DNA of 23,278 bases, taken from the IMG/VR virus record IMGVR_UViG_2562617087_000022; one strand, 5' to 3'. Of the stretch, positions 2,189 to 21,228 are shown piece by piece. The position numbers and the translations under genes were made by a program. The stretch is from a virus. Lineage: Duplodnaviria; Heunggongvirae; Uroviricota; Caudoviricetes. Every line of letters starts with the position of its first letter. Position 1 is the first letter of the stretch. The notes under the pieces are model-generated. The model made no database searches. It was not told the origin of the DNA and was given only the letters and a program-made list of their open reading frames with translations.

Positions 2189-3076
2189 TCAGGCTGCCAG
2201 ATCATCGTTTCTGATGGAAGCATAATAAGCTTTTTCTGCTTCTGCCGGAGGGATATGACCCAGCCTTCCCAGCAATCGTCGATTGTTATACCAGTCCACC
2301 CACGTGAGTGTGGCCAGTTCCACTTCTGCACGGTTTTTCCAGCTCTTACGGTGTATTACCTCCGCTTTGTAAAGACCATTGATGCTCTCCGCCATCGCGT
2401 TGTCATACGAGTCACCTGTACTCCCTGTTGATGCCAGCAGTTTTGCTTCTTTTAGTCGCTCCGTATAGGCCAGTGATATATACTGAGAACCTTTATCACT
2501 GTGATGGACTGTGCCGGACGGCCGACGGGCCCACAACGCCTGCTCCAGTGCATCCAGCACGAATGTCGTTTCCATAGACGATGAGACTCGCCACCCCACG
2601 ATACATCCGGCAAACACATCAATGATGAACGCCACATAGACGAAGCCCTGCCATGTGCTGACGTAAGTAAAATCAGCCACCCACAGCTGGTCAGGACGTT
2701 CTGCCACGAACTGACGGTTTACGCGGTCGCCTGCGGAAACGGCTTTCCGGCTGACGGTAGTACGGACCTTTTTACCCCGGAGAACACCGGCAAGTCCCAT
2801 AACCGCCATGAGGCGCGCCACTGTACATCTGGCCACCCTGATACCTTCGCGTAACAACTGGCGCCAGACTTTACGCACACCGTACACCTGATGATTTTCA
2901 TCGTATACGCGCTGTATCTCTCTCTTCAGCCAGTCATCGCGCTGAGCACGGGCACTGCGTTTATCAGGATGATGTCGCTGTTGCTGACAGTGGTAATACG
3001 TTGACGGGGCAATATGCAGTTCACTGCATACCGGTCCGACCCCGTACTGCTCACGCAGCTTATCCAGCAGCGGCAT
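2189..3076 (-). CDS. IS629 transposase OrfB (DDE integrase domain)
   Basis: 295-aa [18 protein letters not shown]...; recognised as IS629/IS1203 OrfB; a second, truncated copy is at 12118..12795. Confidence 0.9.
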   Translation of the reverse strand: MPLLDKLREQYGVGPVCSELHIAPSTYYHCQQQRHHPDKRSARAQRDDWLKREIQRVYDENHQVYGVRKVWRQLLREGIRVARCTVARLMAVMGLAGVLRGKKVRTTVSRKAVSAGDRVNRQFVAERPDQLWVADFTYVSTWQGFVYVAFIIDVFAGCIVGWRVSSSMETTFVLDALEQALWARRPSGTVHHSDKGSQYISLAYTERLKEAKLLASTGSTGDSYDNAMAESINGLYKAEVIHRKSWKNRAEVELATLTWVDWYNNRRLLGRLGHIPPAEAEKAYYASIRNDDLAA

Positions 3077-3402
3077 TATTTTTTCCAGAGGCGGTCGAAC
3101 TCCGCCTTCGCAAAATAAGCGGAAGCCTGGCGAAGGATATCGTTACTGCGGCGCAGTTCACGATTTTCACGTTCCAGCTCTTTCAGACGCTGACGTTCAG
3201 CGGTGGTGAGTCCACCATCACCACTCCCGGTATCCCGCTCATGCTGACGAACCCACACACGCAGAGTCTCTGGTGTACAGCCAATCTTTGGGGCAATGGA
3301 ACAAATTGCCGCCCATTGTGAGTCATATTCGCCCTGACTTTCCAGAACCATACGAACTGCTCGTTGACGGACCTCGGGGGAAAAACGTGTATTTTTAGTC
3401 AT
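3076..3402 (-). CDS. IS629 OrfA (HTH transposase subunit)
   Basis: 108-aa [29 protein letters not shown]...; the copy at 11792..12118 differs by one residue. Confidence 0.9.
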
Positions 3403-3456
3403 CCTGTTTACCTCTTTCTCAGGGAGTTTAGTCTCCAGGATTCCCGGGGCGGTTCA

Positions 3457-4428
3457 CTGTCTGAGCGCGAGGAGATACGAGCTGGTTTGTCAGCCAAAAT
3501 GAGCATTCGTGCGATAGCTACTGCGCTGAATCGCAGTCCTTCGACGATCTCACGTGAAGTTCAGCGTAATCGGGGCAGACGCTATTACAAAGCTGTTGAT
3601 GCTAATAACCGAGCCAACAGAATGGCGAAAAGGCCAAAACCGTGCTTACTGGATCAAAATTTACCATTGCGAAAGCTTGTTCTGGAAAAGCTGGAGATGA
3701 AATGGTCTCCAGAGCAAATATCAGGATGGTTAAGGCGAACAAAACCACGTCAAAAAACGCTGCGAATATCACCTGAGACAATTTATAAAACGCTGTACTT
3801 TCGTAGCCGTGAAGCGCTACACCACCTGAATATACAGCATCTGCGACGGTCGCATAGCCTTCGCCATGGCAGGCGTCATACCCGCAAAGGCGAAAGAGGT
3901 ACGATTAACATAGTGAACGGAACACCAATTCACGAACGTTCCCGAAATATCGATAACAGACGCTCTCTAGGGCATTGGGAGGGCGATTTAGTCTCAGGTA
4001 CAAAAAACTCTCATATAGCCACACTTGTAGACCGAAAATCACGTTATACGATCATCCTCAGACTCAGGGGCAAAGATTCTGTCTCAGTAAATCAGGCTCT
4101 TACCGACAAATTCCTGAGTTTACCGTCAGAACTCAGAAAATCACTGACATGGGACAGAGGAATGGAACTGGCCAGACATCTAGAATTTACTGTCAGCACC
4201 GGCGTTAAAGTTTACTTCTGCGATCCTCAGAGTCCTTGGCAGCGGGGAACAAATGAGAACACAAATGGGCTAATTCGGCAGTACTTTCCTAAAAAGACAT
4301 GTCTTGCCCAATATACTCAACATGAACTAGATCTGGTTGCTGCTCAGCTAAACAACAGACCGAGAAAGACACTGAAGTTCAAAACACCGAAAGAGATAAT
4401 TGAAAGGGGTGTTGCATTGACAGATTGA
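3457..4428 (+). pseudogene. insI: IS30 transposase, C-terminal portion (disrupted by IS629)
   Basis: From LSEREEIRAGLSAKMSIRAIATALNRSPSTISREV... to ...KEIIERGVALTD stop; colinear with InsI after the IS629 insertion point. Confidence 0.88.
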
Positions 4429-4860: not shown

Positions 4861-6045
4861 ATGAGTGAAACTCGTTTTCATGGTGCCCGTGTTACGGAAA
4901 GTACCGACCTGGTAACAGCGATTAATGATGTTGATTCCAGTGTTATCGGTATCGTGGCAACGGCAGATGATGCGGACGCGGAGCTGTTCCCGCTGAACAA
5001 GCCCACACTGCTGACCCGCGTCAATGACGTGCTGGGAAAATGCGGGACTACGGGGACGCTTTATCGTGCGCTTAAGGCTATCGCAGACCAGGTGAGCACA
5101 AAAGTGATCGTCGTTCGCGTGGCTGAACACAAAGAAGAAGGCGGTAAGACGCAGGATCAACTGGTTATCGGTGGTTCTGAATCTGACGGCAGCTATACGG
5201 GGATGTATGCGCTGCTTGTTGCAGAGCAGGATGAAAGCATCGGATACCGTCCGCGTATTCTGGCCGCGCCGGAGCTGGACACGGAGGCGGTAACAAAATC
5301 CCTGTGCGTGATTGCGGGTAAACTGCGCGCGTTTGTGTATGCCACATGTCATGGTTGTAACACGATGGCTGAGGCGATTACCTACCGCCAGAAATTCAAC
5401 GAACGTGAGGTGATGCTCTTATGGCCTGACTTCATCGCCTACAACCTGAAAAGTGGCAAAAACGAAACGTTCCCCGCGCCTGCTTATGCGTGCGGCCTTC
5501 GTGCGTACATTGACCATGAGCAGGGCTGGCACAAATCGCTGTCCAACGTTCCGGTTAAAAATGTGCTTGGGATGTCGAGGCATGTGTTCTGGTCGTTGCA
5601 GGCCGAAGACAGTGATGCCAACAGCCTCAACAACAAAGAAATCACGACCATTATTCGTCGCAACGGGTTCCGCTTCTGGGGCAACCGCACACCGGAAACG
5701 AACGCCTACATCTTTGAGGTGTATACCCGAACCGCACAGGTGCTGGCTGATTCAATTGCGGAAGCGCAGTTTGAAACCATCGACAGTCCACTGACACCTG
5801 CGAACGTGAAGGATGTTATCAGTGCCATCAGGGCAAAACTGGATTCACTGGTTACTGCCGGGAAACTGATTGGCGCGGAGTGCTGGTATGACATCGAGGA
5901 TAACAGCACCACGAATTTACGTCAGGGGCGTGTGCGTATTCGCTACAAATATACGCCCGTTCCTCCGCTGGAAGACATGGAGCTTTACCAGTCGTTTACT
6001 GATGAATTCTTTGGTCCCGCATTTGCGGTGCTGGGAGGTGCCTGA
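4861..6045 (+). CDS. Contractile tail sheath protein (P2 FI-like)
   Basis: 394-aa ORF with RBS AAGGGG; recognisable similarity to the P2 FI sheath (e.g. ...LWPDF..., ...GFRFWGNRT..., ...YTPVPPLE...). Confidence 0.9.
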   Translation: MSETRFHGARVTESTDLVTAINDVDSSVIGIVATADDADAELFPLNKPTLLTRVNDVLGKCGTTGTLYRALKAIADQVSTKVIVVRVAEHKEEGGKTQDQLVIGGSESDGSYTGMYALLVAEQDESIGYRPRILAAPELDTEAVTKSLCVIAGKLRAFVYATCHGCNTMAEAITYRQKFNEREVMLLWPDFIAYNLKSGKNETFPAPAYACGLRAYIDHEQGWHKSLSNVPVKNVLGMSRHVFWSLQAEDSDANSLNNKEITTIIRRNGFRFWGNRTPETNAYIFEVYTRTAQVLADSIAEAQFETIDSPLTPANVKDVISAIRAKLDSLVTAGKLIGAECWYDIEDNSTTNLRQGRVRIRYKYTPVPPLEDMELYQSFTDEFFGPAFAVLGGA

Positions 6046-6557
6046 TGGCTGTACCAAAACATCTTCGCTTTTTTACGCTGTTTGTGGATGGTGAAAACGA
6101 AGTGGGTAAGGTGACGTCCGTCACCCTGCCTAAACTGACGCGCAAAACCGACAGCTACCGGGGTGGTGGCATGATGGGTGCGGTAAGTATTGACCTCGGC
6201 CTGGACGACTCCGCGCTTGATGCGAGCTTTGTCATGGGGGGCGCAGTTCGTGAGCTGTTCCTGAAGTATGGCGGCACGATTGACGGCACGCTACTGCGTT
6301 TTGCGGGGGAATACTACACCGATGATGAAAGCGACCTGTATGAAGTCGAAATGCGCGGACGTGTGACGGAAATTGATATGGGGGAAGCCAAACAGGGCGA
6401 AGCCACATCACACACTTACGCCATTAAAAACACCTACTACAAGCTGAGTGTTAACGATCGCCCGTTGTGGGAGATTGACCTGCTGAACTTCATTTACCGG
6501 AAGGACGGCAAGGACATTGTGCCCGATCGCATCCGTTCCGCGCTTGGGCTTGGCTGA
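6045..6557 (+). CDS. Tail tube protein (P2 FII-like)
   Basis: 170-aa ORF, start overlaps FI stop (TGATG); ...LPKLTRK...YRGGGM...LRFAG... pattern as in P2 FII. Confidence 0.88.
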   Translation: MAVPKHLRFFTLFVDGENEVGKVTSVTLPKLTRKTDSYRGGGMMGAVSIDLGLDDSALDASFVMGGAVRELFLKYGGTIDGTLLRFAGEYYTDDESDLYEVEMRGRVTEIDMGEAKQGEATSHTYAIKNTYYKLSVNDRPLWEIDLLNFIYRKDGKDIVPDRIRSALGLG

Positions 6558-6611
6558 TAAGTAATATGCAGGCGGCGCAGTGCGTCGCCTCTGACTGAAA
6601 GGAGTTTCCTG

Positions 6612-6977
6612 ATGAAAGAGACGAAAAACATCGATACCGAAAACACGGTAGTTACTGACACTGTGAAAGAAACCAGTGAGCGTGGTGTAAAACTTACCCA
6701 ACCAATTGAGCGAGGCGGCGAAAAAATCACGTATGTGGAGATCACCGGGGCTATTGAGCAGGCTGGATCTCTGCGAGATTTGTCGCTGTCTGATGTGCTG
6801 AATCTGAAAGCGGAATCCATGTTTACGCTGCTGTCACGCGTGACATCACCGCGACTGGATGAAGTGACGATCAAAAAAATGGCATCCCGTGACTTTATTC
6901 AGTTATGTGTGGTTGCCGTAAATTTTTTGAGCGGTGCGGACTCTGGCGGGAAGAACGAACAGGCGACGGAAGCCTGA
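6612..6977 (+). CDS. Tail assembly chaperone (P2 gpE-like)
   Basis: 121-aa ORF with RBS AAGGAG; position between tube and tape measure; contains a TTTTTTG slippery site near the 3' end. Confidence 0.75.
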   Translation: MKETKNIDTENTVVTDTVKETSERGVKLTQPIERGGEKITYVEITGAIEQAGSLRDLSLSDVLNLKAESMFTLLSRVTSPRLDEVTIKKMASRDFIQLCVVAVNFLSGADSGGKNEQATEA

Positions 6978-7141
6978 TCACGGTTGTGTGCTTTGAGCAC
7001 ATAGAAGACTTTGTGGCAGATATTGCCGTTATTTTTAACTGGTCGCCCGCCGAAATCTTCATGATGACGCCCGGCGAAGTGGTTAGCTGGCGTGAGCGGG
7101 CGGCACTTCGCAGCGGGAATGCAGACAATGAAGACTCTTGA
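6612..7141 (+). CDS. Tail assembly chaperone E+E' (predicted -1 frameshift extension product)
   Basis: The -1 frame ORF 6905..7141 overlaps the 3' end of E and ends inside the start of T, as in P2 E/E' (analogous to lambda G/GT). Confidence 0.55.
6923..6929 (+). promoter_or_regulatory. Putative -1 programmed ribosomal frameshift slippery heptamer T-TTT-TTG
   Basis: Heptamer in the E reading frame (codons AAT TTT TTG), upstream of the E stop and inside the overlapping -1 ORF. Confidence 0.5.
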
Positions 7142-9931
7142 TATCCGGGTCGCTTTCAGCGCCGTTGACAGGCTGACCCGACCTGCCGAAAACGCACGCC
7201 GCCTGATGGGGCAGTTTGGTGACTCCATCCAGCGAACGCAGGGGGCGATCAAAAATCTCGAGCGTCAGGCGCGATCATTTGAGCGCGCCCGCGACGCTGT
7301 CAGTAAAGCGGATGCTGGCATCGTGAAAGCACGACGCCAGCTTAACGCCCTTAATCAGTTACAACGCACGGGTACAGTGCTCAGCGAAAAACAACAAAAG
7401 CTGATGCAGCAGTTAAGCACCCGGCTTGAACGCCTGAATGAATCGCGCACACGGGAAATTCAGAAAATGAGGGAACTTGGCGGAGAGCTGAAACGCCACG
7501 GCATTTCCCTGACAGGCAGCGATAACACCATTCAGCAGGCCATCAGACGCACCGAACAATACAACAACCAGCTTGAACGCGAACGGCAGGCGCTTGCGCG
7601 TGTAACGCAGGCGCGTGAGCGGTATTCGCACGCGCAGGAAACCGCGGGAAAACTGAAAACAGGTGGTGCGCTGGCAATTGGTGCGGCAGCGGCGGGCGGC
7701 TATGCTGCCGGGCGTTTTTTGCAGCCTGCGATCGGGTTCGGCAAAGAGATGTCCCGCGTTCAGGCACTGACGCGAATCGACAAAAACAGCCCGCAGTTTA
7801 AGGCGCTGCGTGAGCAGGCGTTAAAACTTGCTGAAACACAGTTTACTGCGAGTGATGCCGCCAGTGGGCAGAGCTTTCTGGCAATGGCTGGTTTTACTCC
7901 GCAGGCCATTCAGGCCGCATTGCCCGGTGTTCTTAATATGGCGCTGGCAGGTGGCGTCGAACTCGGCGAGACGGCTGATATAGGCTCCAATATCCTCACA
8001 CAGTTCAACCTGACAGCCGATCAAATGGACCGGGTGGGCGATACGCTGACAGCAGCATTTACCCGGACCAATACTGATTTACGCGCGCTGGGCGAAACCA
8101 TGAAGTATACCGGTCCGGTTGCCGCAAAACTTGGTATCAGTCTTGAAGAAGCGGCGGCCATGGCCGGGATGCTTGCCAATAATGGTCTTCGCGGAAGCGA
8201 TGCTGGCACGGCCATGCGCGCAAGTCTGTCCCGCCTTGCATCACCGCCAAAAGCTGCGGCTGATGCACTGAAAGAGCTGGGGGTGTCAGTTGCTGACGCC
8301 AGAGGCAAAATGCGCCCGATGGAGGATGTGCTGCTTGATCTCTATAAGGCGACACAAAAATACGGACAGGTGGACCAGGTCTCCTTCTTCAAGGACATCG
8401 CCGGAGAAGAGGCGTTCGTTGGTTTGCAGACGCTTGTTGCGGCGGCTGGTTCAGGAGAGCTGCAAAAACTGACCAGAGAATTGCAGGGGGCAAGGGGAGA
8501 GGCCGATCGCGTCGCAAAAGTAATGGCTGATAATCTTGATGGGGACCTGAAAAATCTCGACAGCGCATGGGAAGGTCTTCGTATTCGCATCAGTGATCTG
8601 GTTGACGGTCCGCTGCGTTCTGTCACGCAGTGGCTCACGCGGGTGCTTGAAAAAATCACCTCGCTGGCGCAGGCCCATCCGGTACTGACGCGCCAGCTAC
8701 TGATAGCAGGCGGTGCGTTGCTGGCAATGACTGCAACGATTGGCTCGTTGTCGCTGGTTATTGGGGTGCTTTACGGGAAGCTGGCCACCCTGCGTCTTGG
8801 TTTTGACATTCTTACCCGGTCAATGAATGTCGTCAGGGTGTTACCTGCGCTATGGGGAATGGTGACGGGTTCCGTTTCTTTACTGGGAGGCGTTATCGGG
8901 GCGTTGTTCAGTCCGGTTGGTCTTATCGTGGCTGCGCTTGCCGGAGCTGCCGTTCTTATCTGGAAATACTGGGATCCTATCAGGGCTTTCTTTGCCGGGG
9001 TGTTCAGCGGGATTATGGAAAGGCTGACCCCGTTGCGCGACACCTTTGAACGGTTTGGCCCTGTTTTTGACGTAATCGGAAGCGGTTCAGCCAGGTGTTT
9101 AACTGGTTTAAATCGCTGCTGTCACCGATGGAGTCCAGCAAGGAAACGCTGGATAAATGTACCAGTGCTGGCGAGGTATTCGGTAACGTTCTTGGTGGTG
9201 CGTTACAGCTTGTTCTGACGCCTGCAAAAATGTTGCTGGATACGCTGGCGTGGATACTTGAAAAACTCGGTGTGCTTCCGGATGAAGCGGAAAGGGCGCG
9301 CAAGAAAATCGAAGACGCACAACGTGCGGCCATTCTTCAGGACAAGGTTGCTCTGTTTCAGGGAGACATTGCGAAAATCAATCCGCCGAAGTCTGCGGGA
9401 AATAGCAATGGCACCGGAGATGATAAACCCAAAGACAACAAACCTCTCACAGACAGCAATACCGGCACGCTACGCAGACTCAGCAAAATTGCTGATAACA
9501 CAGGTAAGCTGGTTGATGAGACAAAAAAACGCATTGGCCCCGGCGATATTGTCTTTAAGAACCTGCCCCGCGCACTTGCTGTTCGTGGGGAGTGGCAGGA
9601 GCGGAAGATTGCGCAGGTCAGTAAGCCTGCCCCCGCAATTAATATCACACCCGTGGTCCCGGCTCCGCTGCCTCCGGCGCTGGTCCCTGTTGTTGCGGCC
9701 AGCTCCCGCCCGGTGGTGGAGGCCATACGATCGCCAGTGGCATCAGTTCCTGCAACTTCCCGTAACCGGGAGCCTGTTGCCTCCGGATTTGGCGGTGAAA
9801 TTCATGTTCATCTGCATAACGTTGTTACGCAGAATCCCCGCGAACTGGCGAAACTGGTCGGCGAAATGGTCAGGGCAGAAATGGAACGGCGCGCCCGTGC
9901 CAGGCGTGGCAGTTTTTACGATAAAGATTGA
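7119..9931 (+). pseudogene. Tail tape measure protein (P2 gpT-like), apparently frameshifted near 9071-9095
   Basis: Coiled-coil and Gly/Ala-rich tape-measure-like sequence in frame 0 up to about 9080, then protein-like sequence continues in another frame (ORF 9095..9931); a 1-nt change in the short T run near 9086 would restore one roughly 937-aa ORF. Confidence 0.72.
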
Positions 9932-9937
9932 GGAGTC

Positions 9938-10432
9938 ATGGCCATGATGATGATCTACGGCATGTTTGTTTTTGAGCTGCGCACGTTGCCGCATCAGCAG
10001 TTACAGCAAAACAAAAGCTGGCGACATGTGAAAAATGAACGCGTTAACCGTTCAGCAAGCTGGCAGTATATCGGTGCAGGTGATGATCGCATCGTTCTTT
10101 CTGGTGTTCTTTATCCTGAGATTACTGGTGGCGAAGTGTCGCTGTCGTTGTTGACCACGCAGGCATATACAGGACGTCCTTGGCCTTTGATTGATGGCGT
10201 CGGGCAGATTTACGGCATGTATGTCCTGACCGGAACGAATACGACCCGCTCCGAGTTTGATCGCTACGGTAAGGCGAAAAAGATAGAATTTTCACTGACT
10301 CTTGAACGCTGTGATGAGGATTTGCGGGAGCGCCTGCAATCCTCATCGTTCAGCGATATGCTGTCCGGCTTCAAAGATAAGGTGACATCATCCCTTAATA
10401 GCGCGGCCAGCTCAGTTAAGGGGCTGCTCTGA
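9938..10432 (+). CDS. Tail protein (P2 gpU-like)
   Basis: 164-aa ORF with RBS GGAG; N-terminus MAMMMIYGMFVFELRT... and WPLIDG motif resemble P2 gpU; follows T. Confidence 0.8.
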   Translation: MAMMMIYGMFVFELRTLPHQQLQQNKSWRHVKNERVNRSASWQYIGAGDDRIVLSGVLYPEITGGEVSLSLLTTQAYTGRPWPLIDGVGQIYGMYVLTGTNTTRSEFDRYGKAKKIEFSLTLERCDEDLRERLQSSSFSDMLSGFKDKVTSSLNSAASSVKGLL

Positions 10433-11209: not shown

Positions 11210-11737
11210 GTGGGGCGACTGGCCACTCAACATCCGCTGCTACTGTTGTATCAACACGATTCAACAATACCCGATATGTCTTCCATGCAGCCAGTAACGA
11301 TGCCTCTTCCTCCGTCGCAATATCCAAATCTACGGCATCCTGAAGTGGCGCAATATGCTCACTGGCTACCTGCATCAGGCTGTTTTTTGTTTCTTCTGCC
11401 TCCCGTACCCGAAACAGTTTTTCTGCTTCTGCATCTTTCGCCCAGGATGTGCCGTTCCACTTCTGACACTCTCCATCCGGCGACAACCAGGTAACATTTT
11501 CCGGTAACGGACCGAGTTCAGAAATAAATAACGCGTCGCCGGAAGCCACGTCATAAACCGTTTTACCCCGATGATCTTCAACGAGATGCCACGATGCCTC
11601 ATTACTGTTGAAAACAGCCACGAAGCCAGCCGGAATATCTGGCGGTGCAATATCGGTACTGTTTGCTGGCAGACCTGTATGAGGCGGAATGTATGCGTCA
11701 CCTTCACCAATAAATTCATTAGTTCCGGCCAGCAGAT
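11205..11737 (-). pseudogene. Tail fibre assembly protein (lambda Tfa / P2 G family), 5'-truncated by IS629
   Basis: Reading frame continues upstream of the listed ORF to the IS629 end: [51 protein letters not shown]...; about the first 16 codons are missing. Confidence 0.85.
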
Positions 11738-11791
11738 TGAACCGCCCCGGGAATCCTGGAGACTAAACTCCCTGAGAAAGAGGTAAACAGG

Positions 11792-12118
11792 ATGACTAAA
11801 AATACACGTTTTTCCCCCGAGGTCCGTCAACGGGCAGTCCGTATGGTTCTGGAAAGTCAGGGCGAATATGACTCACAATGGGCGGCAATTTGTTCCATTG
11901 CCCCAAAGATTGGCTGTACACCAGAGACTCTGCGTGTGTGGGTTCGTCAGCATGAGCGGGATACCGGGGGCGGTGATGGTGGACTCACCACCGCTGAACG
12001 TCAGCGTCTGAAAGAGCTGGAACGTGAAAATCGTGAACTGCGCCGCAGTAACGATATCCTTCGCCAGGCTTCCGCTTATTTTGCGAAGGCGGAGTTCGAC
12101 CGCCTCTGGAAAAAATAA
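11792..12118 (+). CDS. IS629 OrfA (second copy)
   Basis: 108-aa ORF, one substitution relative to the copy at 3076..3402. Confidence 0.85.
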
Positions 12119-12795
12119 TGCCGCTGCTGGATAAGCTGCGTGAGCAGTACGGGGTCGGACCGGTATGCAGTGAACTGCATATTGCCCCGTCAACGTATTA
12201 CCACTGTCAGCAACAGCGACATCATCCGGATAAACGCAGTGCCCGTGCGCAGCGCGATGACTGGCTGAAGAGAGAGATACAGCGCGTATACGATGAAAAT
12301 CATCAGGTGTACGGTGTGCGTAAAGTCTGGCGCCAGTTGTTACGCGAAGGTATCAGGGTGGCCAGATGTACAGTGGCGCGCCTCATGGCGGTTATGGGAC
12401 TTGCCGGTGTTCTCCGGGGTAAAAAGGTCCGTACTACCGTCAGCCGGAAAGCCGTTTCCGCAGGCGACCGCGTAAACCGTCAGTTCGTGGCAGAACGTCC
12501 TGACCAGCTGTGGGTGGCTGATTTTACTTACGTCAGCACATGGCAGGGCTTCGTCTATGTGGCGTTCATCATTGATGTGTTTTCCGGATGTATCGTGGGG
12601 TGGCGAGTCTCATCGTCTATGGAAACGACATTCGTGCTGGATGCACTGGAGCAGGCGTTGTGGGCCCGTCGGCCGTCCGGCACAGTCCATCACAGTGATA
12701 AAGGTTCTCAGTATGTATCACTGGCCTATACGGAGCGACTAAAAGAAGCAAAACTGCTGGCATCAACAGGGAGTACAGGTGACTCGTATGACAAT
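12118..12795 (+). pseudogene. IS629 OrfB, C-terminally truncated
   Basis: Matches the first OrfB copy through ...STGSTGDSYDN, then non-homologous codons and a stop; the DDE domain is incomplete. Confidence 0.85.
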
Positions 12796-12826
12796 GTATT
12801 TTATTAGTTCACATACAATTATCAGA

Positions 12827-13141
12827 TTATTCTGGGAATAAGGTCTGAATATTCTTTTTTATTTTATAAAAATTGCATTCAACTCCGCTAGGCTGATTAG
12901 CCTGGTATGTTTCCTTGATGCTAACGGTATTGAAGGGGAGGTTGTCCTCTGGCCATTCGGCCATCCAGTAGGCAAATGCTGGGTTGCGCTTTATGAGTGC
13001 TAGCCCAGCCAGAAAGGCCGCGCGTTGCGCGCGGCTGCGTTCGGAGGCTGGCAGGCTATCGAGGTAATTGCACGCCTCCTGTTCACTCTTGACGGCGGCG
13101 GGCTTCAGATAGAAACTTATCCGTCTGGTTGGTGTCGTCAT
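12827..13141 (-). CDS. parR: ParR/StbB-like ribbon-helix-helix centromere-binding protein
   Basis: 104-aa ORF 4 nt downstream of parM; N-terminal ...DSLPASERSRAQRAAFLAGLAL... resembles R1 ParR; the C-terminal third is AT-rich and divergent. Confidence 0.65.
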   Translation of the reverse strand: MTTPTRRISFYLKPAAVKSEQEACNYLDSLPASERSRAQRAAFLAGLALIKRNPAFAYWMAEWPEDNLPFNTVSIKETYQANQPSGVECNFYKIKKNIQTLFPE

Positions 13142-13145
13142 TGGT

Positions 13146-14105
13146 TTACTCCTTGTTCATTGCGTACAACCCATTAACCAGAGCAAACTGTGGCACCCCG
13201 TCCGCGATGAAAGTCGCATTAACTCCGCAGGCTTCGCGGATAGCGGTTGCCACAATCTCCGCCCCGCCACCGACAACCATCACCCGCCCGTAACCCGAAA
13301 AAACCGCCAGCGCGCGGATCACGCGTTGTTTCAGTGTTTCTTCCTTTTCACGAATAACCGCCATCAGGCTGGCGTAATGCGCGTCATTGTGGATGTGCTG
13401 GCGCAGCCAGGCTTCATCATGGCGATGTTCGATAATGGTATTGGCGATGTGGTGACTGGTGCGCATACCGTTAGTGGCCATCACCGACAGTACGGCATCG
13501 GCCATCAGAGAAACGCCTACGTGTGGATCGCAAAACACCTGGCTGATACCTGCCAGTTGCCCCTGAACCTTTGCCACATCCAGCGTGGTTCCGCCCAAAT
13601 CCACAATCAGCAGGGATTCAAACGGACTCATGTCAGCCAGTGCCTTAAAGCCAGCAGGAATGGATTCAGGCATAACCCGTACGTTACGGATAGTGAATGC
13701 TTCGCCGTTCTGGTACTCCACCGGGCGCATGACGTTCGCTTTTTTGCGGTTGATGTTGGCCATGTCCGGCTGTGCGTTTGTATCGAAATACTCGCTCAGT
13801 GGCAGGGTGACAACCACATCCACTTCCTGTGGTGTGATGCCTGATTTGACCAGCGCGTGATGAATGGCAATTACATTCACATCGCTGTACTGGTATTGCG
13901 TGTCGGTCGTCTGGACAAAGCGATCGCTGACCGGATCAAAACCATAGCGCACGCCATCAAGCATGTAGTTCGCGGGCTGCGTGCCACCGAATGGCGCAGA
14001 CCATTCCGACTTGAAGCTGTTCGGGCTGATGGCGTTGCGGCGTTCGCCGTTCTCAGTCCATGCCAGCTTGATGTTGGTGGAGCCGTCGTCGATACAAATT
14101 TTCAT
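13146..14105 (-). CDS. parM: ParM/StbA actin-like plasmid segregation ATPase
   Basis: 319-aa ORF; clear colinear similarity to R1 ParM (MK.CIDDGSTNIKL..., ...YSDVNVIAIHHAL..., ...VMPESIPAG..., ...DLGGTTLD..., ...GGGAEI...). Confidence 0.9.
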   Translation of the reverse strand: MKICIDDGSTNIKLAWTENGERRNAISPNSFKSEWSAPFGGTQPANYMLDGVRYGFDPVSDRFVQTTDTQYQYSDVNVIAIHHALVKSGITPQEVDVVVTLPLSEYFDTNAQPDMANINRKKANVMRPVEYQNGEAFTIRNVRVMPESIPAGFKALADMSPFESLLIVDLGGTTLDVAKVQGQLAGISQVFCDPHVGVSLMADAVLSVMATNGMRTSHHIANTIIEHRHDEAWLRQHIHNDAHYASLMAVIREKEETLKQRVIRALAVFSGYGRVMVVGGGAEIVATAIREACGVNATFIADGVPQFALVNGLYAMNKE

Positions 14106-14133: not shown

Positions 14134-14252
14134 TCGGTTACAGGATTTTTAAATCCCGCTTTTGCCTGTTTTGTGCGCGCTTCATATATCGCGGCGCGTT
14201 TTTTGCTCATTTACGGGATTTGTGAGTCCCGTTTCTGTCTGTTTTTTGTTTC
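14134..14252. repeat. Two imperfect direct repeats of about 36 bp (iteron-like), straddling the 3' end of gene A upstream of parM
   Basis: ACAGGATTTTTAAATCCCGCTTTTGCCTGTTTTGTG (14134-) and ACGGGATTTGTGAGTCCCGTTTCTGTCTGTTTTTTG (14213-); each has an internal short inverted repeat. Confidence 0.35.
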
Positions 14253-17004
14253 CACTGGTCAGGCCACCCCGCAGCAGGTCTGCTTTGCGGCTGGCGCGTT
14301 CAGTGGTTTCACTGATTCTCTGTGCGTGCTCTGCGTCGCGGATGGCGCGCAGCATGTCAGAAAGCACGGTAACGGGTGTTTTCATGGTGTTCTGGTCCTG
14401 CTGAAGTGTGGATGCCAGGCGTGCGGCGGCTTCAGGGTCTGATGCCCCCAGCTGTGCCAGATAGCTGGCGACCGGGTTATGGCGGATCTCCGTGCTGCTT
14501 ACGCCATGATTACGGCTCAGGCGCTGCCAGAGCTGCGTGATTCGGCTGTCCGGGCGGGTATCCGGTTTGCGTACAATTTCAAATCCCTGCGGTGCAATGA
14601 TGCTGCCGTCAACGTACAGACTGCCGCCCCGTAACAGGTGCTGCATCTGTTGTTCACCGATATGCAGGCCGAGAGATTCAGCAGACTCCCGCCATTCTTT
14701 AGCGAGTAATTCGTGGTTATCAGGCAAAGGCCGCTGCTGTTTGCGGCTCTGTGTCCAGCTCTGCATTTCATCACTGCTGTTTTTTGCCTGTTTGTCACGA
14801 AGCGAACGCATCAGCGCCCGGCGTTCGTGCCGTTTCAGTGAGCGCATCCATTCGTTCACGTCAACGCCGTCAGGAAGCTGCGGCCACGGTGCTGGCCGTT
14901 CTTCCGGCTGTTCTGTCCCGTTGTTGTCCGTTTCCTGTACACGGGGACAGTTATTGCCACGAGTCCAAGGGGCGGCAGGGCCGCCCTGAAGGTCAAAACC
15001 ATTTTCGCGGGCGCTGTCTTCTACTCCCGGTTTACGTCTTACCAGCTTCCAGTTATCCGGGTGCGTGCACACACGGGAGGATTCCCCGATGAGTGGTGAC
15101 CAGATCCCGTAAATCTGTACGCTCTGTTCGCCGTAATCGTTCAGCTCATCTGCGAGGTCGTAGGCGGTGCGAATCAGGTAGTCCTTGCGTGGAACAAGTA
15201 CGCCTCCCTGTTTCTCAATGTAGGTGGTAAAACATCCGGCATCAGCGGCAGCAAGAACCGCATCCATTGCGTCATCCTTCAGCCGTTGCGGGCCTTCCGG
15301 GTTGCGTGCCATCTGGCTGGCAAGGCGACGCAGTTCACGCCACACCTGACGGGAGGGGATGCCAAAGAACTGGAACTGGCGGACCCGGTGAAGGCGCGCC
15401 CAGCCAATGGCGCGTTCCACGCTCTCGGTCATTGATTTTCCGGTTTCGTGGTCAACGCGTGGTTTGCCTGTTTTCGGGTCGATGCCATCCACGGCGCGGC
15501 TGTCCAGGTTTTTTCCGATGTAGGTGGCGATGTAGCTGGTTGGCGTGCCTTTTGAGCCGTCGACATACTCCGCCTTAAAGCGCGGAGTAATATCATCGCC
15601 CAGCTCGTGACGATCTTCCTGAATGGCAATATCGCGGGTGTGGGACACAATGGTGTCGATTTCTTCCGGATGAGCAAAGACCATCATATGCCAGTGCACG
15701 GTGCCGTCATGGTGAGGCTCCACCGTGCGGATGCCATACCAGCGCAGGCCGTCGCGGTTCAGTTTCTTGCGGACCGCCGCAAAAAACGTGTTAACCAGGT
15801 AATCGCTGGAGTCGCGCATGGTGGCCCCGTTCCATTTGGGATTCGGATGACCGTTCTCTGTTGTAGCGTGGTATTTTGACGGGCAGGTGACAGTCAGAAA
15901 CACCGCTTTGTCGCCACGGGCTTCGGCCAGAAGTTCCAGCCCCTTCATGGTGGCCATCATTTCTGCCTTACGGTGAACCGGGTTACTTACTCCCGCGTAA
16001 TACACTGTCTCGAGATCAATCGTGAACCCGTCTTCGTTTTCCAGCATGAAACTTTTCAGGAAATCGCGTGTTTTCTCGCGCTGTGCGCGAAACTCGCTTA
16101 ACGCGTCCTGGCTCAGATAGGGCGATGTTTTTCTGGAAACCAGACAGGCGGCGCGGAGTTGTTCTTCTCTCCACTCGCAACGTAACAGCCACAGTTTGCG
16201 TTTCCACCATTCCGCACAGGTCAGGCGAAGGATTGCGCCCGGCAGCAGCTCCGTGTCCGGTTCGTTCCTCCGGTCTTTGTCTGTTGTCAGTGCGTCATAA
16301 TGTGGAGGCATGGCGTGCAGGTGTAACGCCATGCGGGCCAGCATCTGATACGCCTTCAGCGTTACATCCATGGTCAGTTCGCCATCGGTCGCGCCAAAGC
16401 CATCGCAGAGTTTTTCGAAGGTGCTGCTGAACATCGCCGCCGTCATGGTGGCCAGCGTCTGTATCTGGTGTTTGTTGAGCTGCGGCAGGTAAAGCAAATC
16501 GTCCAGGCGTTCGCGTCCGGCAAGGGAGCGATAACCCTGTGTCAGCCAGCGGTGATCGGTGCGCTCCAGACGTTCGAATATTTTGCGCAGGTTTCCGCGC
16601 GCGTAGCGTTCAGCCTGCCAGCTCTTTTTGCCTTTCTGACGATCGGCTTCCTGTTTTTTGCGCAGGAAGGAGAGGTGGCGAATAAGCGGATCGCGCAGAT
16701 AGGACGGCAGCAGGCGCAGCGAGGCCATGGCTTCATCCACCGCACCGCGTGCCTGTTTTCTGGCGTCTCCTGCCAGTGTGATGGTTTTGTCCTGTTTTTC
16801 CTGTGCGTCCAGGCTTTTATTAATCAGGTTGCCCAGCGGCGTTGCGGAGAACGCCGCATCAGCCATTTCCTGGCGGCGCTCGTTCTCTACCCGGTAGGCA
16901 TCCAGCCAGGAGGAAAGCGCGGATTCAGGAGCGGGGATCCCCGTTCCTTCACGCCCCACTGCGTGGCGCGGTTGTTGCCAGTCCCTGATGTACTCTGCCG
17001 TCAT
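14182..17004 (-). CDS. Rolling-circle replication initiation endonuclease (P2 gpA-like)
   Basis: 940-aa ORF; HUH-type motif ...EPHHDGTVHWHMMVF... and tyrosine motif ...TSYIATYIGKNL... typical of P2/186 A proteins. Confidence 0.9.
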   Translation of the reverse strand: MTAEYIRDWQQPRHAVGREGTGIPAPESALSSWLDAYRVENERRQEMADAAFSATPLGNLINKSLDAQEKQDKTITLAGDARKQARGAVDEAMASLRLLPSYLRDPLIRHLSFLRKKQEADRQKGKKSWQAERYARGNLRKIFERLERTDHRWLTQGYRSLAGRERLDDLLYLPQLNKHQIQTLATMTAAMFSSTFEKLCDGFGATDGELTMDVTLKAYQMLARMALHLHAMPPHYDALTTDKDRRNEPDTELLPGAILRLTCAEWWKRKLWLLRCEWREEQLRAACLVSRKTSPYLSQDALSEFRAQREKTRDFLKSFMLENEDGFTIDLETVYYAGVSNPVHRKAEMMATMKGLELLAEARGDKAVFLTVTCPSKYHATTENGHPNPKWNGATMRDSSDYLVNTFFAAVRKKLNRDGLRWYGIRTVEPHHDGTVHWHMMVFAHPEEIDTIVSHTRDIAIQEDRHELGDDITPRFKAEYVDGSKGTPTSYIATYIGKNLDSRAVDGIDPKTGKPRVDHETGKSMTESVERAIGWARLHRVRQFQFFGIPSRQVWRELRRLASQMARNPEGPQRLKDDAMDAVLAAADAGCFTTYIEKQGGVLVPRKDYLIRTAYDLADELNDYGEQSVQIYGIWSPLIGESSRVCTHPDNWKLVRRKPGVEDSARENGFDLQGGPAAPWTRGNNCPRVQETDNNGTEQPEERPAPWPQLPDGVDVNEWMRSLKRHERRALMRSLRDKQAKNSSDEMQSWTQSRKQQRPLPDNHELLAKEWRESAESLGLHIGEQQMQHLLRGGSLYVDGSIIAPQGFEIVRKPDTRPDSRITQLWQRLSRNHGVSSTEIRHNPVASYLAQLGASDPEAAARLASTLQQDQNTMKTPVTVLSDMLRAIRDAEHAQRISETTERASRKADLLRGGLTSGNKKQTETGLTNPVNEQKTRRDI

Positions 17005-17010
17005 AGTGAT

Positions 17011-17376
17011 TTACTTCGTCATGCCATTCAGGGTGTCGCGGCAGGCTGTAGCCAGCCGCTGAATTTCCAGCACGGTGTCTTCTGTGTCGGCATGGCGATG
17101 TGTGATGCGGATGCTGTCGGCAATCACATCGACGATTGCAGAGGATGGGCGCTGGTAAATGCCAATAACGGACGGGGTGCCACCTTCAATGCGGTAAAGC
17201 CTGTAATTTCCCTCGTGGCTGTCAATCATGTAGCGACCATCAATAACAATCTTTCCGTCAGCGAGCTGCGGTACAGGCAGGGATTTCAGGTACATGTCAT
17301 AACGATCACGCACGCGAGCGGCAAGATCACGTTCTGTGTTGAGCAGGTATTCAAGAAAGTCGTTGGCGAGAATCAT
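17011..17376 (-). CDS. Hypothetical phage early protein
   Basis: 121-aa ORF with RBS AAGAGGA; ends 7 nt before gene A; protein-like composition. Confidence 0.55.
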   Translation of the reverse strand: MILANDFLEYLLNTERDLAARVRDRYDMYLKSLPVPQLADGKIVIDGRYMIDSHEGNYRLYRIEGGTPSVIGIYQRPSSAIVDVIADSIRITHRHADTEDTVLEIQRLATACRDTLNGMTK

Positions 17377-17448
17377 TGCGGCAATCCTCTTGTTACAGAT
17401 GTGCGAAGGCCTCCCGCCGCAAGGTGCAGGAAAGGCCCGGAACAGGAA

Positions 17449-17679
17449 TTAATGGAGTTTGTTTTGCTGCTGGATGAGCTGTTGAAACTCGTGCAGATCA
17501 TCCGCCAGATAGCTGAAAACAGAGGCGGAATAAATGTTTGATAGTGCGTGGCTGCGCTCATGCAGCATATTGATGTGCATGATTTGCGCGACGCGTGATG
17601 CGCGGGAAAGTCTGCGGTTGATTTCAGTCTGGATGTGACGACGCTCCGCGATAGCGCGGTGCTGTTTGCGGTCTGCCAT
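17449..17679 (-). CDS. Hypothetical small basic protein
   Basis: 76-aa ORF with GAGG RBS; first gene after the structured non-coding island. Confidence 0.5.
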   Translation of the reverse strand: MADRKQHRAIAERRHIQTEINRRLSRASRVAQIMHINMLHERSHALSNIYSASVFSYLADDLHEFQQLIQQQNKLH

Positions 17680-17848
17680 GGTGTGGCCTCTTTGCTCGGT
17701 GATAGAAATAACTCACCATCCAGAGTTGAGAATCTCGGGGTGGCGAGACGTACAGGGTTCTCAACACCGGAGAGCAAAGAATCCGGCCCGACCGAAGTCG
17801 GCCCCGTACGCCCCGCCATAATTCTGACGCGAAAAAGACGTGGCAATA

Positions 17849-17870
17849 CAGTACGCACAAAAAAACCGCT
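17849..17870 (-). terminator. Candidate intrinsic terminator (minus-strand transcript)
   Basis: Short GC stem AACCGC / GCGGTT with 4-nt loop, then 7 U on the minus strand; weak stem. Confidence 0.4.
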
Positions 17871-17941
17871 AGCGCGGTTATGCGCTTTGCTCTGTATCGG
17901 GTTGAGAATCCCGGCACCCGTTTTATGAGGTGCAGCGGAAA

Positions 17942-17970
17942 TGTAACCTGACCGATTGCGGCATGGCAAG
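17942..17970 (+). terminator. Candidate intrinsic terminator (plus-strand transcript)
   Basis: Stem CCGATTGC / GCAAGCGG (one mismatch) with 6-nt loop, followed by T7. Confidence 0.45.
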
Positions 17971-18001
17971 CGGTTTTTTTGTGTGTGCATGTTCTGGTTT
18001 C

Positions 18002-20823: not shown

Positions 20824-21228
20824 ATGAAAAATGATATTGGTCGGCGGTTGCGTGAGGAAAGGGAAAGATTGGGACTTAGTCAAGTTGCCATGAGCGACAT
20901 TGGTGGAGTCAAAAAGCTAACTCAGCTTAGATATGAGAAAGGAGATAGCTTTCCTGATGCTGCGTATTTGGCAGCGCTGTCTCGTTTTGGCCTTGATGTT
21001 CAGTATGTTGTGTTGGGAATTCACTCACCTGAAACTTATAACGATGATGAGCAGGAATTGATTACTCGCTTTCGAGCAGCTTCGTTAGATGTGAAAAACG
21101 CGGTGATTGGGGCTTTAAAAGGTGCGATCAGTGAAAAGGAAACTCAGCCATCAGGACGTGAGTTAAATATTTCTGGTGGTAATAACCGTATCGCTGGTCG
21201 TGACTATAACGAAACTAAGGGTAGGTGA
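20824..21228 (+). CDS. CI-like immunity repressor (XRE-family HTH)
   Basis: 134-aa ORF; N-terminal ...RLREERERLGLSQVAMSDIGGVKKLTQLRYEKGDSFPDAAYLAALSRFG... HTH; divergent from the early operon and co-directional with the integrase. Confidence 0.8.
   Translation: MKNDIGRRLREERERLGLSQVAMSDIGGVKKLTQLRYEKGDSFPDAAYLAALSRFGLDVQYVVLGIHSPETYNDDEQELITRFRAASLDVKNAVIGALKGAISEKETQPSGRELNISGGNNRIAGRDYNETKGR

Follow-up and report, generated by a model that had tools for sequence, protein, structure and literature searches.

The question raised by this locus is what fills a 320-bp island among minus-strand genes, positions 17680-18001 of the 23,278-nucleotide stretch analysed here (the window), in which RefSeq calls no CDS. 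The original prediction saw no credible gene there and suggested that the early genes are separated from the genes for replication and parMR by an attenuator or by a regulatory or antisense RNA. Both views are borne out: judged by its sequence, the island holds two phage RNA genes of catalogued kinds, one an IsrK/seqA-like leader and the other a C4/CI-type antisense RNA, each scoring above the gathering threshold of its Rfam family. Very probably it represents an antisense-RNA immunity cassette of the P4/P1 type, lying in the early operon of an E. coli O157:H7 prophage that belongs to the P2 family (P88/Xuanwuvirus-like). The cassette is real but ordinary, an RNA immunity switch of a type already known from P4, P1 and Gifsy-1. 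Along the minus strand the order is a sigma-70-like promoter, the IsrK-like leader carrying a1 and b1, a terminator, C4 carrying a' and b', then a2, b2 and an epsilon-like gene, with the following features.

17950..17986, no strand assigned: conserved left end of the cassette, with a hairpin and T-run on the plus strand and an A-tract and segment X on the minus strand
17964..17969, minus strand: -35 hexamer TTGCCA of the predicted cassette promoter, from a promoter scan and invariant in 40 distinct P88-like variants
17940..17945, minus strand: -10 hexamer TACATT of the same promoter, from the promoter scan and relatives
17859..17933, minus strand: IsrK / P4 seqA-like leader RNA, with two hairpins at the 5' end and then an intrinsic terminator
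17901..17911, minus strand: a1 target (GGAUUCUCAAC), displayed by the loop of IsrK-like hairpin 2
17885..17893, minus strand: b1 target (AGAGCAAAG), a 9/9 complement of the b' loop (repeat I6)
17859..17879, minus strand: intrinsic terminator ending the IsrK-like RNA, AACCGC-GCUA-GCGGUU and then U7, from a terminator scan
17818..17846, minus strand: promoter-like site TTGCCA-17-AATTAT, 9/12 consensus positions
17736..17823, minus strand: C4 / P4-CI-type antisense RNA gene, from Rfam RF01695, folding and compensatory changes
17771..17780, minus strand: b' recognition loop (UCUUUGCUCU), the 10-nt loop of C4 hairpin 2
17755..17765, minus strand: a' recognition element (GUUGAGAACCC), the unpaired junction 17765-17758 and the first stem bases
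17719..17732, minus strand: a2 target (UUCUCAAC, extending to UUCUCAACUCUGGA), repeat I2
17687..17697, minus strand: b2 target (GAGCAAAGA), a 9/9 complement of b' (repeat I5)
17449..17679, minus strand: putative regulated gene, encoding 76 aa homologous to epsilon, the 'derepression protein' of P4, from Pfam, BLASTP and the RefSeq name

The leader matches the Rfam family of the Hfq-binding RNA isrK (RF01394) over model positions 1-77 with 63.0 bits (gathering score 50, E 1.4e-11) and folds at -24.5 kcal/mol (z -2.4). Compensatory changes were found in 8 of the 13 predicted pairs of its hairpins across 117 unique relatives. The promoter, TTGCCA-18-TACATT at 17969..17940 on the minus strand, predicts a transcription start at about 17933, 7 nt past the -10 hexamer, which coincides with position 1 of the isrK match. 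At the other end, the minus-strand terminator of the original prediction is present, with a stem at 17879-17864 and a U-run reaching 17859, and is kept in all P88-like variants. At the sequence level, then, isrK membership goes together with an upstream promoter of its own and a Rho-independent terminator. The element is filed under isrK despite its a1/b1-type targets, because its match at 17946..17894 to the Rfam c4-a1b1 family (RF03163), the model for the upstream target of P1 and P4, reaches 15.9 bits, below the gathering score of 46.7; P4 scores 44.1 bits against that model, likewise just under the gathering score. The TTGCCA-18-TACATT site had gone unseen in the original prediction, as had a second (b) triple repeat and a 21-nt inverted repeat (I1) that brackets the first RNA gene.

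The second RNA gene fits C4 (RF01695) along its full length, model positions 1-87, with 78.5 bits (gathering score 45, E 4e-14). Its minimum free energy fold (-47.6 kcal/mol, z -4.9, matched in stability by none of 200 shuffles) reproduces the structure of the model: a 17-bp closing stem, a UUCG-capped hairpin, a second hairpin presenting the b' loop, and a single-stranded junction that holds a'. The UUCG hairpin had been anticipated, and is found at 17801-17788 with its loop at 17796-17793. Compensatory double changes affect 14 of the 28 C4 pairs among 90 unique sequences, and broken pairs are almost absent. The Rfam search and the structure-conservation analysis suggested with the original prediction have thus returned C4 and isrK, both on the minus strand, and base-pair compensation in each. 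Sub-threshold Rfam matches to CRISPR-DR33, STnc410 and Hrs13 (E 0.2-0.6) were dismissed.

An internal promoter reading TTGCCA-17-AATTAT had also been proposed. The site exists, at 17846..17818, but it is unlikely to be the C4 promoter and was rejected as such: a start some 7 nt downstream would lie inside the closing stem and remove part of it, and the -35 hexamer is not conserved, reading TCGCCA or TTGCTA in many relatives. Its AAUUAU belongs to the conserved 5' flank of the C4 model, and the promoter at 17969..17940 is the better placed of the two. Since this internal site would start transcription within the closing stem, it hints that C4 may be released by processing.

The original prediction paired the minus-strand terminator with one on the plus strand, as convergent terminators. 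The plus-strand partner is no better than chance: its fold of -11 kcal/mol (z -0.41) was equalled by 62 of 200 shuffles, it was not called by the terminator scan, and as an independent feature it was rejected on stability. This bears on a rival account of the island, that it is plain intergenic punctuation made of convergent terminators and an internal promoter with no trans-acting RNA. The minus-strand terminator and the two promoter-like sites fit such an account, as do the 7 terminator-like sites in the scanned 1.7-kb stretch (1.9 +/- 1.4 in shuffles). We nevertheless give it next to no credence, as the plus-strand terminator is no stabler than shuffled sequence and the Rfam matches (E ~1e-11 to 1e-14), the compensatory stems and a three-way co-variation of recognition sequences are all left unexplained.

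That co-variation involves a triple GTTGAGAA motif, for which long-range pairing had been proposed. Exactly three copies occur in the 23-kb window, against about 0.75 expected, all within 180 nt: at 17725-17732 and 17901-17908 on the plus strand and at 17758-17765 on the minus strand. From their sequence and placement, the three make up a recognition set of the C4 kind, a1 / a' / a2, and the proposed pairing becomes that of an antisense element, a', with its targets a1 and a2, co-varying across relatives. The a' element is the inverted copy of the motif and is complementary to both targets (repeats I2 and I4); a1 is complementary to it at 10 of 11 positions (I4; local duplex -20.8 kcal/mol), and a2 is complementary to 17771-17758 at 12 of 14 positions (-18.4 kcal/mol). 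The second triple repeat, b1 / b' / b2, is written GAGCAAAG. Here the b' core UCUUUGCUC, at 17780-17772 in the minus-strand RNA, is complementary to b1 and b2 (repeats I6 and I5). The b2 core, at 17697-17689, has a duplex energy of -16.3 kcal/mol with b' and overlaps AAGAGG, the Shine-Dalgarno sequence that lies 7 nt ahead of the start codon (ATG at 17679). The RNA combines membership of the C4 family, a loop and a junction complementary to targets both upstream and downstream, and a b2 target at a ribosome-binding site.

Local duplex energies at the recognition sites run from -12.5 to -20.8 kcal/mol, and in the minimum free energy fold of the whole leader the b'-a' region pairs with a2-b2. 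Nested co-folding of C4 with its targets gave -2.4 kcal/mol against -1.0 +/- 1.3 kcal/mol for shuffled sequence; it neither supports nor excludes the pairing, because a nested model cannot represent loop-loop contacts. Most inner coordinates of the original prediction lay about 8-10 nt too low. The repeats placed near 17892 and 17748 are at 17901 and 17758, the terminators given as 17849-17870 (minus strand) and 17942-17970 (plus strand) are at 17879-17859 and 17950-17980, the promoter given as 17836-17808 is at 17846-17818, and the hairpin given as 17774-17795 is at 17801-17788.

Recognition was followed across cassette relatives through a specificity set of 58 distinct a'/b' combinations (21 a', 36 b'), with variants counted by a relaxed C4-core sequence pattern so that the window's own sequence was included. 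A cognate match was an exact complement of at least 7 nt, searched for in the 200 nt upstream and the 80 nt downstream. Upstream, a' found its a1 in 98% of the 58 types and b' its b1 in 90%; downstream, a2 was matched in 95% and b2 in 84%, against 2-5% for non-cognate a'/b' pairs. The spacing is also fixed in relatives: counted from the C4 core, a2 stands at +21..23 nt and b2, ending GGA or AGA, at +52..57 nt. Among the 40 P88-like variants the promoter, terminator and stems are almost invariant; the a and b segments alone vary, and they do so in concert.

Could the conservation instead be that of a protein? An Ash-family gene, intact or decayed, might fill the interval, and three observations invite this reading. 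A 205-aa ORF (17990..17373) has a weak match to Phage_ASH (Pfam PF10554), the stretch is annotated 'similar to ash family protein' in one phage record, and one frame is open through C4 in 131 of 135 unique relatives. The Pfam match, at 18.6 bits, is below the cut-off of 26, however, and the ORF overlaps the entire epsilon-like downstream gene in another frame; RefSeq has no CDS in the interval. The open frame was dropped as a coding test; it merely mirrors conserved GC-rich sequence, so entropy by codon position was used in its place. This was 0.57, 0.69 and 0.65 for the three positions, with no excess variation at the third, and the 205-aa ORF shows no codon periodicity. The open frame leaves a peptide overlapping C4 formally conceivable. 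Relatives also carry frame-breaking 1- and 2-nt indels inside the interval, and a protein would not explain the compensatory stem changes or the concerted variation of a and b. As to an intact gene across the interval in homologues, which had been named as a finding that would count against a regulatory RNA, some records do label the stretch 'ash family', but that Pfam family also matches an obsolete 'cI protein' ORF of P4 that covers its CI RNA gene: that ORF scores 59.7 bits against Phage_ASH, and the immunity factor of P4 is an RNA (PMC4825925). We regard a protein gene here as highly improbable, and read the interval as the C4-type RNA cassette.

The gene that follows b2 encodes a 76-aa protein that RefSeq names 'derepression protein'. 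It matches Pfam PF25738 Derepression with 31.9 bits (cut-off 27) and aligns with P4 epsilon by BLASTP at 32% identity over 50 aa (E 6e-9). The target that P4 epsilon binds or inactivates is the C repressor of P2. Beyond it lie a 121-aa ORF, a replication gene of the P2 gene A type (PF05840, 438 bits) and parMR; the ORFs of the epsilon-like gene, A, parM and parR are intact.

Of the known systems P4 is close in architecture. Its immunity region, running PLE promoter - seqA - cI RNA with seqB - seqC - ... - epsilon - alpha, matches both isrK (60.8 bits) and C4 (74.9 bits), arranged and oriented as in the window. P4 also has a promoter-like site, TTGCCT-18-TATAGT, and a terminator at equivalent positions around its isrK-like hairpins, and two-part recognition sequences upstream of, inside and downstream of the antisense RNA; epsilon and then a replication gene follow, as the epsilon homologue and replication gene do in the window. 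In P4 the CI RNA pairs with seqA and seqC, leading to premature termination, and IsrK is a structural homologue of seqA (PMC4825925). The recognition sequences differ, b' being CCUGUGAA and a' UUCUCAC in P4 whereas the window has the b' core given above and a' GUUGAGAA, and the specificity is therefore different. The spacer between isrK and C4 is shorter in the window, with a1 103 nt before the C4 core compared with 178 nt in P4. In P4 an ATG after b2 opens a leader ORF (kil/eta) that spans about 65 codons and reaches the start of epsilon; translation of this ORF controls termination. No such small leader ORF is found at the downstream target in the window, where b2 and the Shine-Dalgarno sequence are followed directly by the epsilon-like ATG. 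The replication gene of P4 is the alpha primase, whereas the window has the P2-type gene A endonuclease and then parMR; and P4 is a satellite, whereas the window element is a phage of the P2 family that encodes an HTH repressor (20824-21228) and an integrase itself.

The immI region of P1/P7 (c4 - icd - ant) resembles the window in having an RF01695 antisense RNA co-transcribed with its targets; P1 was compared by description. Its target layout is partly as reportedly set out by Citron and Schuster in 1990. By that description P1 has a1/b1 upstream and a2/b2 downstream, b2 at a ribosome-binding site, an anti-repressor-type function under control, and a protein repressor in addition. The two differ in that the upstream target of the window fits isrK (63 bits) and not c4-a1b1 (15.9 bits), in that icd/ant are controlled in P1 and the epsilon homologue in the window, and in that icd follows b2 in P1 whereas the epsilon-like gene follows directly here. 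In P1, C4 RNA and Icd control ant expression (PMC8201110), and both the C4 and c4-a1b1 motifs have been catalogued (PMC2864571). Lambdoid Stx-type phages (among them ArgO145 and ASU11) hold an isrK-C4 tandem about 70% identical over window positions 17686-17932. Both families score above their gathering thresholds there, and the tandem lies directly upstream of a regulatory or anti-repressor gene; unlike in the window, that downstream gene is of the Rha family or an 'antirepressor', and the phage backbone is different.

From these comparisons the most likely mechanism is that the cassette promoter yields a terminated IsrK-like RNA and a read-through transcript, and that C4, acting on a2/b2, silences the anti-repressor-like gene; gene A and parMR are probably kept silent by C4 as well. 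Of the transcripts started at the cassette promoter, most would end at the IsrK-like terminator as the short RNA. Read-through transcripts would carry C4, to be excised as a stable RNA of about 80 nt. In P1 and P4 it is RNase P that makes the 5' end of the C4/CI RNA. Pairing of b'/a' with b2/a2, in cis or in trans, would then block translation of the epsilon-like gene, and the untranslated leader would favour premature, probably Rho-dependent, termination, so that gene A and parMR would stay off in the lysogen. As b2 sits directly on the epsilon-like gene, unlike in P4 and P1, this polarity step may work differently. The a1/b1 targets in the short RNA could provide a second site of C4-enforced termination, as in the P4 model, or could titrate C4, as in the Gifsy-1 model, which would free the ribosome-binding site. 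The a' and b' sequences would set the specificity of immunity.

Gifsy-1 suggests a different arrangement. Its isrK - orf45 (STnc1160) - anrP region, compared here by description (PMC4825925), shares with the window the isrK family, a short terminated RNA and a read-through mRNA from one promoter, a leader complementary to a downstream segment that hides the ribosome-binding site, and an anti-repressor-like gene downstream; downstream of IsrK there is also STnc1160, which is a processed RNA (PMC4825925). There the short IsrK raises translation of the anti-repressor-like gene at least 100-fold (PMC4825925). By analogy, the long transcript of the window would be silent and the short RNA, as the main regulator, would open the epsilon-like gene in trans, with C4 serving mainly as a cis-inhibitory segment. 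The 63-bit isrK match is in keeping with such an activator circuit, as are the leader fold, which hides b2 and the Shine-Dalgarno sequence by cis pairing with b'-a', the activation seen in Gifsy-1 and the likewise anti-repressor type of gene found downstream here. The Gifsy-1 short RNA, however, activates through a 45-codon upstream ORF (orf45) and translational coupling, and in the window the space from C4 to the ATG contains no such ORF. Moreover, its synteny, with epsilon and a replication gene, is that of P4, where the CI RNA represses, and Gifsy-1 is lambdoid with the antiterminator AntQ as its output, unlike the window. We hold the activator circuit to be possible but doubtful. The two models are not exclusive, since titration of C4 by a1/b1 would resemble activation.

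Under the preferred reading, repression by C4, it may still be that the cassette is idle in this strain, since IS elements have cut the prophage and what remains of it is rearranged. It is interrupted by an IS30-type transposase, by an IS009 match and by IS3-family elements, whose ALIL pseudoknots lie at 3005-3121 and 12073-12189, and the tail genes are apart from the early region. These rearrangements favour the view that the cassette is a sequence-intact but functionless relic, unexpressed or regulating nothing. We think this unlikely: all three recognition sets are intact, as are the promoter, the terminator and each stem, and none of them differs from its counterpart in complete phages with this specificity; the ORFs of the epsilon-like gene, A, parM and parR are unbroken, and among the matches listed the region is 100% identical in O157:H7 genomes, with 333 E. 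coli records at 99% or above.

The left end of the cassette has a further property. On the plus strand, 17950-17980 forms an imperfect hairpin with a T-run; the minus strand has an A-tract at 17980-17974, just upstream of the -35 hexamer, and segment X at 17986-17966. A common substitution in relatives changes a C-G pair to U.G on the plus strand and leaves a C.A mismatch on the minus strand. Segment X is complementary at 19 of 21 positions (repeat I1, 90%) to Y (17873-17853), which comprises the 3' arm of the IsrK-like terminator and its U-tract, and in the fold of 18001..17848 an X:Y helix replaces the terminator hairpin. The complement of X is found in all P88-like cassettes and in no P4-like cassette, P4 being without it. 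As X lies just upstream of the cassette promoter, only transcripts from the repressor-controlled early promoter would contain it, and given its complementarity to the terminator such early-operon transcripts could override or reprocess that terminator. This might amount to promoter-dependent anti-termination or to the formation of an RNase III site, while transcripts from the cassette promoter would still terminate. A lineage-specific coupling, through X, of the P4-type RNA cassette to the protein-repressor switch of P88-like phages is a long shot on our estimate. Were it true, the epsilon-like anti-repressor would be a commitment device, and P4-like satellites with matching a'/b' could silence such prophages or be silenced by them.

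The main value of these results is a correction of annotation: where RefSeq shows nothing there are two catalogued RNA genes, which probably decide the expression of anti-repressor-like, replication and partition genes. In some phage records the interval is called 'ash family' or forms part of a CDS named 'antirepressor'. A specialist in P1 or P4 immunity would find nothing surprising here; our literature search found no paper on the cassette in O157:H7 or P88-like phages. A P2-family phage of the helper type shares its immunity RNA and epsilon module with the satellite P4, which bears on the origin of satellite derepression and immunity functions and on possible RNA-level cross-talk between co-resident prophages. 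The region was matched in 1,293 of 5,426 complete E. coli genomes, with at least 80% of it present in 957. Among the matching genomes are O157:H7 strains that have Stx phages as well, and related cassettes occur in those Stx-type phages that were examined.

An Rfam scan of the whole window revealed matches to two described RNA families in the 17680-18001 gap, both on the minus strand: isrK (RF01394) at 17933..17859, with 63 bits against a curated threshold of 50, and the C4 antisense RNA (RF01695) at 17823..17736, with 78.5 bits against a threshold of 45. The island element is a member of two described families, placed as in phage P4, and the original prediction of a regulatory or antisense RNA was right. 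The gap carries no RefSeq annotation in an identical O157:H7 genome. C4 contains two antisense recognition elements, a' and b', with upstream targets a1 and b1 and downstream targets a2 and b2.

Features of the island and its borders, in the order of minus-strand transcription
18004-18002, minus strand, stop codon of the upstream neighbour, a 99-aa ORF
17969-17964, minus-strand RNA, promoter -35 (TTGCCA)
17945-17940, minus-strand RNA, promoter -10 (TACATT), predicted start at about 17933
17933-17914, minus-strand RNA, IsrK-like hairpin 1
17913-17898, minus-strand RNA, IsrK-like hairpin 2, its loop being a1 (17911-17901)
17893-17885, minus-strand RNA, b1 (AGAGCAAAG)
17879-17859, minus-strand RNA, terminator
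17818-17802 with 17757-17741, minus-strand RNA, C4 closing stem (17 bp)
17801-17788, minus-strand RNA, C4 UUCG hairpin
17787-17766, minus-strand RNA, C4 hairpin 2, its loop being b' (17780-17771)
17765-17755, minus-strand RNA, C4 junction, a'
17732-17719, minus-strand RNA, a2
17697-17689, minus-strand RNA, b2, overlapping the Shine-Dalgarno AAGAGG, 7 nt ahead of the ATG (17679)
17679, minus strand, ATG of the downstream neighbour, a 76-aa ORF

The C4 RNA folds at -47.6 kcal/mol (z -4.9), a stability equalled by 0 of 200 shuffles, and the IsrK-like RNA at -24.5 kcal/mol (z -2.4). The observation that led here was real, save for coordinate offsets and two weak sub-features. The listed elements are present, including the minus-strand terminator (17879-17859) and the UUCG hairpin (17801-17788), but the inner coordinates had been set some 8-10 nt too low. 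The triple GTTGAGAA occurs at 17725-17732 (+), 17901-17908 (+) and 17758-17765 (-), and nowhere else in the window; from the positions of the a elements on the minus-strand RNA, these copies are a2, a1 and a', respectively. The TTGCCA-17-AATTAT site, proposed as a promoter, is present at 17846..17818. Three features had been missed: a promoter-like sequence in a better position, TTGCCA-18-TACATT (17969..17940), a second three-copy motif (AGAGCAAAG, UCUUUGCUC and GAGCAAAGA; repeats I5 and I6), and a 21-nt inverted repeat (I1) that flanks the first RNA gene. The suggested plus-strand terminator (17950-17980) folds at -11 kcal/mol, no better than shuffled sequence (z -0.41).

The strongest result for the cassette is the three-way co-variation of the antisense elements with both target sets. 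Relatives were collected as 80 loci encoding close relatives of the 76-aa protein and 120 more from a C4-core pattern scan; they contain 58 distinct a'/b' combinations, built from 21 a' and 36 b' sequences. With an exact complementary stretch of 7 nt or more as the criterion, a cognate match was found in the upstream 200 nt for 98% of combinations with a' and 90% with b', and in the downstream 80 nt for 95% and 84%, respectively, whereas non-cognate pairs matched in 2-5% in all four comparisons. Downstream of the C4 core the targets keep a fixed spacing, +21..23 nt for one and +52..57 nt for the other; the 3' end of b2 is usually GGA or AGA. Compensatory double changes were observed in 14 of 28 pairs of the C4 stems, with unpaired cells almost absent (90 unique sequences), and in 8 of 13 pairs of the IsrK-like RNA (117 unique sequences). 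In a set of 40 distinct P88-like variants, promoter, terminator and stems hardly vary; the differences are confined to the a and b segments, which always change in concert, the pattern that would be expected of heteroimmune variants. Across the C4-core viral contigs (loci L084-L203), b' loops and a' junctions are found in many mixed pairings, one b' occurring with four or more a', which suggests that the two specificity elements are exchanged as modules. Two C4 genes that differ in lineage and specificity lie on one viral contig (L110; 266-463 and 8633-8720), possibly co-resident cassettes: one is P88-like, with the window's a' (GUUGAGAA) and a different b', and the other is P4-like.

The variation in these relatives also bears on whether the interval instead holds a protein-coding gene, a 205-aa ORF (17990..17373) of the Phage_ASH type, which we consider very improbable. 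The ORF scores 18.6 bits against Phage_ASH, under the threshold of 26, one phage record marks the stretch as 'similar to ash family protein', and in 131 of 135 relatives one reading frame runs uninterrupted through C4. However, the ORF overlaps the whole 76-aa gene, relatives carry 1- and 2-nt indels within the interval, and their variation lacks codon periodicity. We read the open frame as a by-product of conserved, GC-rich sequence, a peptide still being formally possible. Moreover, P4 has an old 'cI gene product' ORF that overlies the CI RNA gene and reaches 59.7 bits with Phage_ASH (PF10554), so that this family appears to represent, in part at least, the translated sequence of an RNA gene plus its leader. 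The RefSeq record of P4 (L003) still has a CDS of 137 aa over the CI RNA gene, at 8168-8584, named 'cI gene product / transcriptional repressor'.

Applied to phage P4, the same Rfam search finds both families in the immunity region (C4 74.9 bits, isrK 60.8 bits), in the order seen here and directly upstream of the helper-derepression gene epsilon; a promoter-like sequence and an intrinsic terminator occupy equivalent positions. The 76-aa protein encoded downstream of the island is homologous to epsilon, with 32% identity over 50 aa (E 6e-9). Unlike P4, the window has shorter spacers, no small leader ORF after b2 and a P2-type replication gene followed by parMR; its host element has a full P2-family phage backbone, equipped with an HTH repressor and an integrase of its own. 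Both the C4 and the c4-a1b1 motif appear in the catalogue of Weinberg et al. (PMC2864571), and IsrK is a structural homologue of P4 seqA (PMC4825925). For this phage lineage and strain, neither the annotation nor the literature searched mentions the cassette (P88-like phages, O157:H7). Lambdoid Stx-type phages carry the same tandem immediately upstream of Rha-family or 'antirepressor' genes. In phage ASU11 (L204) the 'putative antirepressor' CDS (2131-2793) covers both the C4 (2548-2635) and isrK (2660-2736) matches, its start codon probably being mis-assigned.

In P4, the CI RNA is cut from an untranslated transcript and pairs with seqA and seqC, leading to premature termination (PMC4825925); in P1, the Ant anti-repressor is controlled by C4 RNA and Icd (PMC8201110). 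In Gifsy-1, a processed RNA, STnc1160, lies downstream of IsrK, and the short form of IsrK is an activator of the downstream gene, with an effect of at least 100-fold (PMC4825925). By analogy with these systems, transcription from the cassette promoter would mostly stop at the terminator, giving an IsrK-like RNA of about 75 nt, while some transcripts would read through and have C4 excised from them. Pairing of the b' loop with b2 and of the a' junction with a2 would then block access to the epsilon-like gene's ribosome-binding site, and we propose that premature termination before gene A and parMR would thereby be favoured. In the minimum free energy structure of the whole leader the b'-a' segment pairs with a2-b2 in cis, consistent with a silent default state. 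The a1/b1 elements of the short RNA may provide a second termination site, as in the P4 model, or a decoy freeing the ribosome-binding site, as in the Gifsy-1 model.

Just upstream of the -35 hexamer, and outside the cassette's own transcript, lies a segment X (17986-17966), which is complementary at 19 of 21 positions to Y (17873-17853); Y comprises the terminator's 3' arm and U-tract in the IsrK-like RNA (repeat I1). X and Y form a 21-nt inverted repeat, 90% complementary, that brackets the IsrK-like gene. In the predicted fold of a transcript from upstream, an X:Y helix replaces the terminator hairpin (z -4.4). All 24 distinct P88-like cassettes have an exact X:Y complement of 11-16 nt (14-16 nt with a single exception), and none of the 94 other cassettes tested, mostly P4-like, has one; one variant lacks one A and one T, lost together across the two arms. 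X could serve promoter-dependent anti-termination, be an RNase III site or a promoter-helping A-tract, or be the originally predicted plus-strand terminator.

The window derives from an E. coli O157:H7 prophage of the P2 family (P88/Xuanwuvirus-like) that adjoins yecA and the Gly-Cys-Leu tRNA cluster. Past the island the gene order is the Pfam 'Derepression protein' (PF25738), a 121-aa ORF, P2-type replication gene A, parM and parR. The gene A endonuclease (14182-17004, minus strand, 940 aa) has a Phage_GPA domain at residues 179-503 only, with long N- and C-terminal extensions beyond it. Directly after it in this integrated prophage come parM and parR (12827-14105, minus strand), plasmid-type actin-like partition genes (Pfam StbA_N/ParM_N and Plasmid_stab_B). 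They belong to the operon that would be under the control of the RNA cassette, and this hints that the element can be maintained in a plasmid-like way, as P4 is. IS elements interrupt the prophage at 2189-4428 and 11242-12807. Two inverted copies of ALIL, the IS3-family frameshift pseudoknot, accompany rve transposase ORFs (3005-3121, minus strand; 12073-12189, plus strand), with an IS30-type transposase at 3364-4428 and an Rfam IS009 match at 11242-11440. Between the IS elements, apart from the early region, lie P2-type tail genes (sheath, tube, tape measure and gpU; 4861-10432).
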